64,000 nt of DNA, taken from a virus (lineage: Duplodnaviria; Caudoviricetes). The DNA is taken from the IMG/VR virus record IMGVR_UViG_3300037418_002116. One strand, 5' to 3'. Shown here piece after piece: positions 4,341 to 53,530 of the stretch. Below the pieces are notes generated by a model that saw only the letters and a program-made list of their open reading frames with translations, was not told the origin of the DNA and made no database searches. The position numbers and the translations under genes are program-made. The first letter of the stretch is position 1, and each line of letters begins with the position of its first letter.

Positions 4341-4545
4341 TGAGAAACACCTTCTTTTTGATGAATTCTTCCATGTCGCCCTGAAATTTCAGGTACACGG
4401 AAATTGGGTATAGGTTTTCGAACCCATGAGCCCGCAGTCGAATGGTTTCTTTGTCATAGTCGATGATCGCCTTGACCTTGTGTCCATCGATTTTGTAGAG
4501 TCGTTCGACATTATTTTTCTCTTCCGAGATAACAACGAACGACAT
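4330..4545 (-). CDS. hypothetical protein
   Basis: 71 aa, overlaps both neighbours. Confidence 0.6.
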   Translation of the reverse strand: MSFVVISEEKNNVERLYKIDGHKVKAIIDYDKETIRLRAHGFENLYPISVYLKFQGDMEEFIKKKVFLNGH

Positions 4546-5015
4546 CAGATTCGAGTTCCATCCGGTCGGACCTTCACTCCATCCTTGTCTGTCGGATCAC
4601 ACGGGTGATGGCCCCAGACCGCAAAATATTTGTCTCGCATCAGCTTCTTTCCATTAATCCAAAAAGCCCAACGTCGGGAAGGCTTTCCAGTTATAAGAAA
4701 TGTCCAAGTTCCCGGCAAGACATTTTGCACGGAATGACGAAATTCGGCGGGCCGATACCTGAACATGCCTGCCCGTAGCGTTTCTTTGAAGGAAAATCCC
4801 TCTTTTGGCGTGATCGACACGTCATCATAGCCACCTTTCAGAATAAAGGTGAGAAACCAGTACGGATGATCATGATAGGCCCGATGATCGTCATCACCAA
4901 GCCAATGATGGAGCCGAAGGGAAATGAAGCCGAAATCGAGAACATACCGATAAAAGTACGGACATTCTTTCAGACCGCCCGGCTGTTTCCATGTGAGTTT
5001 GGGAAGAAATCTCAT
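4545..5015 (-). CDS. cupin-fold (double-stranded beta-helix) protein
   Basis: From MRFLPKL: LRLHHW...DDHRAYHDHPYWF.TFILKGGY.D ... RPAEFRHSV ... TWTFLITG, i.e. HxH plus distal His metal site. Confidence 0.7.
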   Translation of the reverse strand: MRFLPKLTWKQPGGLKECPYFYRYVLDFGFISLRLHHWLGDDDHRAYHDHPYWFLTFILKGGYDDVSITPKEGFSFKETLRAGMFRYRPAEFRHSVQNVLPGTWTFLITGKPSRRWAFWINGKKLMRDKYFAVWGHHPCDPTDKDGVKVRPDGTRI

Positions 5016-5296
5016 TGATCGCTCTTCGCAAATTCCTTGGCGGCATTGACCCAATAATGACCGGCCATGCCAAGAGTACAAGCGAGAATATTGGCGAGAG
5101 CGTCAAGCTTGCCTTCAATGACAGCCAACTCACGTTTTGTCACTTTGTGCGTGGCAGCGAGTTTGTCCGATGAACGGCACAGATTGACCATTCGAACCCA
5201 GATAAGAGCCTGTGTCTTATCAAACTTCCAACCCGCTGGCGCTGACCACTGTTGCGGTCCACTAAGTGAGTCGATTGTTACTTTCTGGATTTTCAT
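5012..5296 (-). CDS. hypothetical protein
   Basis: ATGA-coupled to the cupin gene. Confidence 0.6.
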   Translation of the reverse strand: MKIQKVTIDSLSGPQQWSAPAGWKFDKTQALIWVRMVNLCRSSDKLAATHKVTKRELAVIEGKLDALANILACTLGMAGHYWVNAAKEFAKSDQ

Positions 5297-5732
5297 AAAC
5301 AATTAGCCCCGATTCCACATTCTTTCCGTCTATCTGGAACATATCATAAGGAAGCGGATGGTAATTGTCAATATATTTCTCAATATTTTGAGAATCTTTA
5401 CGGACCAGTGCGACAAGTTTGCCGCCCGGTCGTAAAAAGGTAATAGCGTGATCGACGTGGGGGATTGAATTTTTTGGCGGGCACATAAGCACCGCATCGA
5501 ATCGGCCAAGGAAATCCAGTGAACTATATGACATGGAAAGAAAGTCACGGTTGAACACAATGAAGCTATTCCGAAGCTTCATTGCCAGTTCCTTGTTCAG
5601 TTCAACACATGTGACTCGGGCACCAACGGCAACAGCGGCCATCGCAAGATTGCCGCCGCCAGCCGAGGGTTCCAACACTCTGTCATATTTCTGGATACCG
5701 GCAATCTTGACCATTTCATGGGCCAAGAACAT
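5262..5732 (-). CDS. class I SAM-dependent methyltransferase (N6-adenine MTase-like, NPPF changed to CPPK)
   Basis: 156 aa from MFLAHEM; motif I VLEPSAGGGNLA, VELN, RDFL, FDAVLMCPPK, LRPGGKLVALV. Confidence 0.75.
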   Translation of the reverse strand: MFLAHEMVKIAGIQKYDRVLEPSAGGGNLAMAAVAVGARVTCVELNKELAMKLRNSFIVFNRDFLSMSYSSLDFLGRFDAVLMCPPKNSIPHVDHAITFLRPGGKLVALVRKDSQNIEKYIDNYHPLPYDMFQIDGKNVESGLIVYENPESNNRLT

Positions 5733-5755
5733 CGGTGTTTCCGTTGCGGGAAGAT

Positions 5756-6003
5756 TGGTCCGGTGGGAAGGGTTCGAACCCCCGACACCAAGGCTTTCAT
5801 CCGTGTATTCTGCATCATTAAACATTGGAGCTACCATTGTCCTTTGATGCATACATTAAGGAATTACGGACGTTACTAAGTATCATATCGTCATGCAAAG
5901 TGTTGCAACACCTTACATTATTGTTTGACACCGTTGGCATCTTTAGGTTTCCCTTCGGTTCCTTCTTACGGTCCTTGTGCTCTACCAACTGAGCTACCAC
6001 CGG
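5756..6003 (-). ncRNA. 248-nt tRNA-like RNA with a 179-nt insert replacing the anticodon loop
   Basis: CCGGTGG/CCACCGG-A-CCA acceptor; GCTC-AGTTGGTA-GAGC D-arm; CAAGG/CCTTG stem enclosing 5794-5972; GGGGG-TTCGAAC-CCTTC T-arm; promoter directly upstream. Confidence 0.8.
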
Positions 6004-6012
6004 ATTACGCTT

Positions 6013-6040
6013 GATATAAGCGAGGATTATTGAATGTCAA
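6013..6040 (-). promoter_or_regulatory. sigma70-type promoter for the tRNA-like RNA
   Basis: TTGACA-N16-TATATC ending about 10 nt before the RNA 5' end. Confidence 0.7.
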
Positions 6041-6314
6041 CACCTATTTTGATCTTTTTTGCCGTGATGGTCCTTTCATATCTCTCCATGAGAAGTCTGA
6101 GGATATCGGCAATTTCGGAATCATTACAGGCGACCGTAAGGGTTTTGAGTCCACCCTTGTATGATGGAATATAAACTTCATATAGCATATGTGTCCCTTA
6201 ACCGGTTATGCCCCCGGTTTCCCATAACGAAAGTTCTATACGGTTTCAGGACGTGGTACAACCCCAAAAAAGGTCAGACATTCCATCTTGACACCGTTTT
6301 TGATTGATTCGGCC

Positions 6315-53445: not shown

Positions 53446-53530
53446 TGGAGGCGTCAGTGGGATTTGAACCCACACTCCGTAGAGACTTCCGCTTTGCAGG
53501 CGGATACGTTAGCCATTCCGTCACAACGCC
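53446..53530 (-). tRNA. tRNA-Cys(GCA) with a 14-nt variable arm
   Basis: GGCGTTG/TGACGCC-U73-CCA; TCCGC-CTGCAAA-GCGGA; variable AGTCTCTACGGAGT; GTGGG-TTCAAAT-CCCAC. Confidence 0.9.

Follow-up and report, generated by a model that had tools for sequence, protein, structure and literature searches.

What can a phage gain from a tRNA gene whose anticodon loop has been opened by a long stretch of structured RNA? The question is raised by a 64,000-nt stretch of viral DNA (hereafter the window, meaning the whole stretch that was analysed), the source of which is described as a T4-like soil phage. On its minus strand, from 6003 to 5756, the window encodes a 248-nt RNA that has the arms of a tRNA and 172 additional nucleotides in the midst of them.

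A tRNA-Phe opened at the edge of its anticodon loop

We numbered the RNA from nt 1 (6003) to nt 248 (5756). The 5′ half of the tRNA (nt 1–31; 5973..6003, minus strand) consists of the acceptor 5′ strand, U8-A9, the D arm, A26 and CAAGG; the 3′ half (nt 204–248; 5756..5800, minus strand) consists of the loop strand, CCUUG, GUGUC, the T arm, the acceptor 3′ strand, A73 and CCA. The acceptor stem is CCGGUGG/CCACCGG, followed by A73-CCA; the D arm is GCUC-AGUUGGUA-GAGC, in which AGUUGGUA forms the loop; GUGUC is the variable loop, and the T arm reads GGGGG-UUCGAAC-CCUUC. Five base pairs of anticodon stem, CAAGG/CCUUG, enclose 179 nt. These are the insert itself (nt 32–203, 172 nt; 5801..5972, minus strand), whose structure is indicated by folding and by covariation within its subtype and the whole of which is covered by RNA contigs, and the anticodon-loop strand AUGAAAG (A32, U33, G34, A35, A36, A37, G38; 5794..5800, minus strand), which lies single-stranded between the insert's closing helix, P1, and the anticodon stem. 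The insert enters between nt 31 (G31) and nt 32, just where the anticodon loop opens on its 5′ side, and its removal leaves a 76-nt tRNA with the loop A-U-GAA-A-G. ARAGORN run in intron mode reports a tRNA-Phe(GAA) with a 172-nt insert at position 32, and in its default mode it does not call the element; the Rfam tRNA model (RF00005) scores it at 15.1 bits, below the gathering score of 29. The RNA as a whole folds far better than shuffled sequence (z = −5.4), and none of 200 shuffles folded as well.

An earlier note on this DNA had described such an RNA, and its observation is correct in each detail that could be checked. The acceptor with A-CCA, the D and T arms and the CAAGG/CCTTG stem around 179 nt are all present, on the minus strand, as are the helices that it listed within the insert: CCGU/ACGG, the AAGGUGUU/AACACUUU hairpin, GUAU-GCAUCA/UGAUGC-AUAC and ACAAUGG/CCAAUGU. 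The Phe-like AU-GAA-AG loop that it expected from excision is indeed that of the joined exons, a 76-nt tRNA-Phe on which ARAGORN in intron mode agrees. It also placed a sigma-70 promoter about 10 nt upstream, and there we find an exact −35 TTGACA (6040–6035), a 16-nt spacer and a −10 TATATC (6018–6013); this sigma-70-type promoter (6013..6040, minus strand) ends 9 nt before nt 1 of the RNA. Every relative for which upstream sequence is available has an exact TTGACA with a TAnAnn −10 element at a distance of 16–17 nt. A consensus promoter scan did not flag the site in the window, because the −10 hexamer lacks the final T.

Directly upstream of the element lies a conserved 53-aa ORF (6027..6188, minus strand), the stop of which overlaps the promoter; C-terminal peptides resembling that of this ORF are encoded upstream of the element in two relatives, L001 and L015. 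Two other relatives have a predicted gene for a cyclic-phosphate-processing receiver domain (cREC_REC) one or two genes upstream of the element (L009, 1252–1587; L013, 1257–1568). No cREC gene was seen adjoining the element in the window.

The tRNA body is conserved in a family of 13 elements

We traced relatives of the element from homologues of the downstream methyltransferase (see below) by protein and DNA searches, and found 13 elements, 12 of them complete, in related phage contigs. The window, L009 and L015 make up one subtype, with inserts of 171–173 nt; L001, L010, L011 and the partial L014 make up a second, with inserts of 114–146 nt. Further members are L013, in a complete 242-kb phage, and L058. 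L016 and L106 each carry a tandem pair, in which an upstream 'a-type' element is followed by a 'b-type' element that precedes the methyltransferase. The a-type elements (L016, 3874–3627; L106, 774–1023) contain a second insertion, a 29-nt D loop with a CCUU...AAGG hairpin.

Across the 12 complete elements, 251 of 252 cells in the tRNA stems are paired, with double-sided changes at 16 of the 21 stem base pairs; when the partners were shuffled 1,000 times, 181 cells were paired on average, and at most 198. These pairs were counted on register-exact parses rather than on the MAFFT alignment, in which one anticodon-stem strand was misaligned. A helix of 3–5 bp joins the ends of the insert in all 13 elements, with a 5′ linker of 0–2 nt. 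The site of the insert is constant and the loop strand is 7 nt long in every member, and in all eight methyltransferase-adjacent elements tested, ARAGORN in intron mode reads the joined exons as a 76-nt tRNA-Phe. These data show that the cloverleaf and the short insert-closing helix have been kept by selection in the 13 elements.

Conservation is not uniform within the loop strand. Position 33, which is almost invariably U in elongator tRNAs, is U in seven elements, A in four and C in two. At position 37, 12 elements have A and one has G, and the T loop is UUCGAAY throughout. G34, A35, A36 and A73 are each invariant in 13 of 13 elements, and CCA also never varies; the four nucleotides constitute the universal identity set of tRNA-Phe (PMC9976931).

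Searches by other routes did not extend the family. Neither a blastn search against phage GenBank nor an exact-pattern scan of viral contigs found an element, and a pattern with a short insert found nothing in viral contigs. A pattern scan of metagenomes returned five ordinary tRNAs with chance spacing and one odd locus, L004 (JACCDR012314753.1, 684–895, minus strand), which has a tRNA 5′ half, two tandem repeats of ~65 nt and a T arm, and an acceptor strand that mismatches the 5′ half. In a scan of a genome collection, 61 of 62 matches failed the cloverleaf filter. The remaining match, L170 (Pirellulales MAG CAVTEK010000008.1, 6880–7102, minus strand), is a bacterial tRNA-Phe gene split by an insert of ~160 nt; a copy of the 7-nt anticodon loop CTGAAAA flanks the insert at either end, as a target-site duplication would, CCA is not encoded, and there is no Rfam match. 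We rejected L170 as a member of the phage family and regard it as a different kind of interrupted tRNA-Phe.

Apart from the known element, no further split tRNA was found in the window or at the loci of its relatives. Two other tRNAs are unusual in their own ways. The window's tRNA-Cys(GCA) (53446–53530, minus strand) is 85 nt long and, in the Rfam alignment, has an extra stretch of 11 nt in the variable region, which is unusual for Cys. At 2641–2714 of L037 (the same as 539–612 of L043; phage G003), ARAGORN calls a tRNA to which it assigns no type, with a short anticodon loop and hence an 'anticodon' of two bases (ga).

The insert is structured and varies between subtypes

P1 pairs 5971–5968 with 5804–5801 and closes the insert. 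Within it, P2 (AAGGAA/UUCCUU) pairs 5964–5959 with 5863–5858, an 11-bp hairpin pairs 5918–5908 with 5903–5893, and a 3′ domain occupies 5854–5805. P1, P2 and the 11-bp hairpin show covariation within the window's subtype, and CCGU/ACGG and the AAGGUGUU/AACACUUU hairpin covary in relatives. An alternative helix in the window's fold, CGUCCGU/ACGGAUG, was rejected, as relatives give it no support. Comparison of the untranslated a-type pair is also telling: among 21 variable sites, we counted three compensatory pairs, eight one-sided changes that keep pairing and none that break it. The earlier note had entertained a pseudo-tRNA disrupted by an insertion; with a closing helix in all 13 elements and helices that covary within subtypes, the insert is not such a lone disruption.

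Insert lengths range from 114 to 173 nt across the family, and only position, closing helix and approximate size are common to the different subtypes. The best 5-mer, ACGAU, occurs in 10 of 13 inserts, a level that is reached by 8% of shuffles. We found no match to any Rfam family, the group I intron (RF00028) included, for the window's element at E up to 10 or for eight relatives at E up to 1. Together with an empty search in the tmRNA mode of ARAGORN, this bears out the expectation that the RNA is neither a known group I intron nor a known tmRNA.

In all members, the 3′ junction is preceded by G; the 5′ junction follows either G31 or a purine (G or A) of the linker, never U. By-eye reading of the junction sequences yielded no bulge-helix-bulge that could be drawn. 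No 4-nt stretch at a distance of 3 nt after nt 31 is complementary to the 4 nt before the 3′ strand of the anticodon stem, and the junction sets a linker of 0–2 nt against the 7-nt strand, beside a helix of 3–5 bp.

The unspliced RNA is present in rhizosphere metatranscriptomes

In 15 rhizosphere metatranscriptome runs, 33–57% of the element's sampled words were present. For four runs, we compared contigs with the region 5500–6300 of the window. Contigs of these runs (5765–5986, 5765–5967, 5840–5993 and 5819–5986) are continuous through the insert, and they extend 36 nt into the 3′ half (to 5765) and 14–21 nt into the 5′ half. No spliced joint occurs in the RNA contigs of these runs, from which a 76-nt spliced tRNA would probably escape by its failure to assemble. 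Three of the four runs leave the flanks bare; in the fourth, separate contigs of low depth cover the methyltransferase gene and stop at 5749. No RNA contig bridges the junction between CCA and the methyltransferase, a point on which the contigs, with parts of the flanks uncovered, are uninformative either way. Contigs do not give transcript ends, strand or abundance; what can safely be said is that RNA with the insert occurs as a discrete species, close to the 248 nt predicted. The transcript that the earlier note called for has thereby been found, in its full-length, insert-bearing form.

The contigs of three runs differ from the window by C>T at 5871 (RNA nt 133, G>A), which is the base found in L009 and L015, and by T>C at 5918 (nt 86, A>G), which converts an A-U of the long hairpin to G.U. 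Both changes look like strain variants that keep the structure.

The element overlaps the reading frame of a methyltransferase

Immediately downstream, the element adjoins a gene for a small methyltransferase. Its reading frame (5262..5852, minus strand) is open from 5855 and has ATGs at 5852, 5837 and 5825, all of them inside the insert; it passes through the tRNA 3′ half, continues directly after CCA with NLPATETP, and goes on to VLEPSAG and the motif IV sequence MCPPK. The codons of NLPATETP vary mostly at third positions, and no in-frame start codon lies between them and the insert. The same arrangement is seen in eight of nine methyltransferase-adjacent elements, in which the open frame extends 28–52 codons ahead of A73 and the insert contains ATGs. 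Substitutions at codon positions 1/2/3, summed over seven pairs that are not independent, number 44/38/39 in the 5′ exon and 5′ part of the insert, 20/27/42 in the last 60 nt of the insert, and 12/15/29 in the tRNA 3′ half; an excess at third positions is found in the latter two regions and not in the 5′ part. Since the frame is open, has no later in-frame start and shows this excess, we place the probable start of translation in the insert. As judged from these patterns, the methyltransferase of most members is probably translated from there and on across the tRNA 3′ half. The candidate start codons, and with them likely ribosome-binding sites, are located in the 3′ domain of the insert, beside the 3′ strand of P2; in the window's subtype, the ribosome-binding sites before the in-insert ATGs look weak. 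Position 33 falls at the third base of an Asp or Glu codon, and it varies even in the four elements that have no overlapping reading frame.

Two members depart from this arrangement. In L013, a terminator, a promoter and the methyltransferase's own ATG intervene between RNA and enzyme. In L058, an HNH endonuclease-like ORF (about 1150–1480) lies between them, and the methyltransferase has its own start, MTRSLPAT... From these phages, in which RNA and enzyme are separate transcription or translation units, we see that the extension is dispensable for the enzyme and that the RNA retains its form where it carries no coding overlay. The N-terminus of the small RNA methyltransferase 5bxy aligns to LPATETP.

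A structural model of the methyltransferase has a class I Rossmann fold (pLDDT 90), and its top Foldseek matches are TrmN, M.TaqI, RsmD-like proteins, PH1948 and Trm11. On the strength of this model, we assign the predicted fold with confidence to the nucleic-acid base N-methyltransferase group. The protein has no target-recognition domain. SAM motif I (VLEPSAG) and the TP motif are conserved in the phage clade; the latter lines up with FxTPP in distant homologues, which also have NPPF. In place of a canonical motif IV, (D/N)PP(Y/F/W), the window's clade has MCPPK or MCPPR, L058 has CPPA, and L016 and L106 have NPPH, sequences that suggest an altered substrate or chemistry. Strikingly, this alteration goes together with the RNA. 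Among 80 methyltransferase loci found by a profile search, the RNA element is present at all five with CPPK, CPPR, CPPA or NPPH as motif IV, and at none of the 72 with NPP[F/Y/W]. Given this co-occurrence, we conclude that the RNA belongs with the methyltransferase subclade in one conserved module.

The earlier note missed both this module and the frame that starts inside the insert. It had the RNA heading a methyltransferase-cupin run, of which the methyltransferase is indeed directly downstream, and the 'cupin' is a weak lead only. That name refers to a 178-aa protein encoded two genes after the methyltransferase (4545–5081, minus strand), which is 64–70% identical across all loci, and hence more conserved than the methyltransferase, and has invariant His/Asp clusters (DDDHRAYHDHPYWF, HSVQ and GHHPCDP). 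It has no Pfam match; its fold model is unusable (pLDDT 42), and an atlas search gave weak similarity to cupins and cysteine dioxygenases.

A proposed stable, non-decoding mimic of tRNA-Phe

We consider it moderately probable that the RNA is a stable, unspliced and non-decoding mimic of tRNA-Phe, akin to a natural tRNA scaffold and partnered with the methyltransferase. The element would be transcribed from its own sigma-70-type promoter, beginning at tRNA position 1 or no more than about 3 nt away from it. In the transcript, the tRNA body would serve as a scaffold that recruits the cell's enzymes for tRNA end processing and protects the RNA, so that a discrete species ending near CCA would accumulate. 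The insert would prevent decoding on the ribosome, and G34, A35, A36, A73 and CCA would stay available to readers of Phe identity, most simply PheRS. Because, in most members, the methyltransferase probably starts in the insert 3′ domain and the tRNA 3′ half is probably translated, the primary transcript could have two mutually exclusive fates: it would either fold and be cut to the stable RNA, which would behead the methyltransferase message, or be translated. The RNA would then most likely be a substrate, a handle or an operator of the methyltransferase. Structure, expression of the unspliced form and association with the methyltransferase are matters of observation; for processing, charging, the switch and the partnership with the enzyme, we infer from these.

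Three findings lead us to propose that the RNA may still be read as 'Phe', most simply by PheRS, and yet is not built for the ribosome: position 33 is free to vary, the four identity nucleotides are frozen, and a complete 242-kb relative (G003) has, besides its element, a canonical tRNA-Phe(GAA) that agrees with the joined exons of that element at only 40 of 76 positions. Of the mini-synthetases mentioned in the earlier note, only a mini-HisRS was found, and nothing related to Phe. Counting against the mimic, the joined exons form a perfect 76-nt tRNA-Phe and the loop strand is exactly 7 nt, as an intron would predict.

The interpretation offered in the earlier note holds in part. Of its suggestions, the tmRNA-like RNA finds no support (see below), a self-splicing intron is unlikely, and a non-decoding tRNA-like RNA is the best fit. 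Its idea of an aminoacylatable decoy, or an analogue of the stable RNAs of T4, is closest to what we favour: the identity set and CCA are invariant, position 33 is free and the full-length form is seen. The RNA is putatively chargeable, and its likeness to T4 is a loose one, to species 1 RNA.

A bolder extension would make the locus a natural chimera of tRNA and mRNA as well as an RNA-enzyme pair. The same nucleotides would both form the 3′ half of a non-decoding tRNA chargeable with Phe and encode the N-terminus of its partner methyltransferase. To that enzyme, with its catalytic motif altered to CPPK and no target-recognition domain, the stable RNA (perhaps in the form of Phe-RNA) would be a substrate or guide of its own. 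We think this rather unlikely; if it were true, the phage would be using tRNA identity outside translation.

Precursor, leader or relic

The strongest competitor to the mimic is an intron-containing tRNA-Phe gene, in which the full-length RNA is a precursor and proteins excise the insert at 31/32 to give the 76-nt tRNA-Phe: once an endonuclease had cut, the ends would be healed and sealed by phage or host enzymes of the Pnkp/Rnl or RtcB type. Such splicing would account for joined exons that are called as tRNA-Phe in all eight methyltransferase-adjacent elements tested, for the fixed insert site, the 7-nt loop strand and the G before every 3′ junction, and it has a possible parallel in the unexplained tRNA 'introns' of Lak megaphages (PMC6784885). 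The predicted cREC genes near the elements of L009 and L013 could likewise be read in this sense. It fits poorly with the RNA contigs, in which the unspliced form was assembled in four of four runs and no joint was seen, with the change of U33 to A or C in six of 13 elements, and with junctions at which no bulge-helix-bulge could be drawn by eye. To our knowledge, protein-dependent tRNA splicing has not been described for bacteria. Excision would moreover cut the methyltransferase frame off from its probable start, structural selection acts on the insert in its own right, and the complete relative already has a canonical tRNA-Phe. Protein-dependent splicing, the form in which the earlier suggestion of an unusual intron best survives, is therefore in our view unlikely, if still a serious contender. 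A self-splicing intron, whether of group I or of a new class of ribozyme, fares much worse. Group I introns are known in the anticodon loops of bacterial tRNAs, and they end in G, as does the insert in every member. They also have U before the 5′ splice site, where the family has G or A and never U, and their P3–P9 core needs about 200 nt or more; the inserts go down to 114 nt, which is below any group I intron that we know of. Given these lengths, the want of a shared motif or of any Rfam match within the E values above, and the base at the 5′ junction, a group I intron or other conserved ribozyme is very unlikely, and the accumulation of unspliced RNA speaks against it as well.

A different possibility is that the element acts mainly in cis, as a leader: the methyltransferase mRNA would begin with a tRNA-Phe mimic that holds the start site, the enzyme (as a tRNA-binding protein) or tRNA-processing enzymes would set the level of translation, and the stable RNA would be a by-product. 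The thrS operator acts likewise for ThrRS. Start codons and likely ribosome-binding sites in the insert 3′ domain, the strict linkage of the RNA to the methyltransferase subclade, always upstream of it, and a predicted transcription start that coincides with tRNA nt 1 are all as this would have them. We nevertheless judge it improbable as the main function. The terminator, promoter and separate ATG of L013 and the HNH gene of L058 come between RNA and enzyme, and in L016 and L106 the a-type element is followed by another RNA rather than by an ORF; all of these elements keep the full tRNA body, GAA, A73 and CCA, and an operator would need neither an encoded CCA nor a perfect acceptor stem. Because RNA and methyltransferase are separate units in L013 and L058, a cis-regulatory link cannot be the whole function. 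As for a decaying tRNA pseudogene that was disrupted by insertion and has no function, the failure of standard tRNA finders to call the element is what one would expect of it; 13 elements that keep every stem through compensatory changes, a conserved promoter of their own and RNA in RNA libraries are not. That reading is already contradicted by the covariation and expression data, and we give it next to no credence.

Returning to the non-decoding mimic, interrupted tRNA genes have been noted in phages before and have not been explained, and a family of 13 with strong covariation, RNA evidence and a conserved protein partner gives a basis for their proper study. The combination of frozen G34, A35, A36, A73 and CCA with a free position 33 and a swappable insert points away from decoding and towards the use of tRNA identity outside the ribosome, be it for charging, for modification, as a decoy or as an operator. 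The overlap, on the same strand, of a tRNA 3′ half and a probably translated frame is unusual, and suggests a simple switch between folding and translation. As such elements are invisible to standard annotation, tRNA counts for metagenomic phages and some 'methyltransferase' gene starts are likely to be wrong.

Comparison with known systems

Like tmRNA (ssrA), the element has tRNA-like halves parted by a long structured region that holds the start of a reading frame. It differs in having G-C rather than G.U at 3:70, a full D arm and an anticodon stem, and in lacking a tag frame that ends before the 3′ half; the frame of an ordinary gene runs out through the 3′ half instead. The tmRNA mode of ARAGORN (-m) found nothing in nine elements, and there was no significant match to the Rfam tmRNA models; with the G-C pair and the D arm, this leaves the suggestion of a tmRNA-like RNA unsupported. 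YrlA-type Y RNAs are tRNA-shaped non-coding RNAs of bacteria and phages that are unspliced partners of a neighbouring protein, Ro60. Unlike theirs, the ends of the phage RNA are not permuted, and its partner would be a methyltransferase; the element has no match to the Y RNA model RF02553, and no Ro60 gene occurs in the parts examined.

Of the stable RNAs of T4, species 1 RNA (rnaC; AF158101, 70908–71046) is comparable as a small stable RNA of a T4-type phage, likewise of unassigned function, with a T arm (loop UUCGAAU) and an acceptor-like closing stem around extra hairpins. It lacks the D arm, anticodon stem, anticodon strand and CCA, and it sits in a tRNA cluster rather than before a methyltransferase. 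We rejected rnaD as an analogue, since it is not tRNA-like (z = −0.8).

Engineered tRNA scaffolds (the approach of Ponchon and Dardel) carry structured RNA of up to about 250 nt in the anticodon arm; tRNA enzymes process the products precisely, and the products are protected from decay (PMC3753655). They share with the element the acceptor, T and D arms and the replacement of the anticodon loop by structured RNA (PMC3753655). They are man-made and drop the anticodon loop, whereas the phage RNA keeps the seven 3′ nucleotides of the loop, with an invariant GAA. By analogy, we think that the natural RNA may gain stability as the scaffold does.

The closest report is that on Lak megaphages (Devoto et al. 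2019, PMC6784885), with tRNA introns described as 'enigmatic'. There too, tRNA genes of phages are interrupted in the anticodon region, by sequences of no known intron class, and are missed by finders run in bacterial mode. The Lak inserts were predicted with tRNAscan in eukaryote mode and are polymorphic for presence and absence, and the available excerpt of the report gives no expression, covariation analysis or partner gene for them (PMC6784885). In the present family, by comparison, the insert is at 31/32 in all 13 elements, the RNA is observed in unspliced form, position 33 is variable and there is always an attached methyltransferase. We rate the element as a variant among the tRNA-like RNAs and interrupted tRNA genes of phages, one that matches no described RNA family. 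What is unusual about it is the signature of Phe identity, the evidence for the unspliced form, the fixed enzyme partner and a tRNA half that is probably translated.
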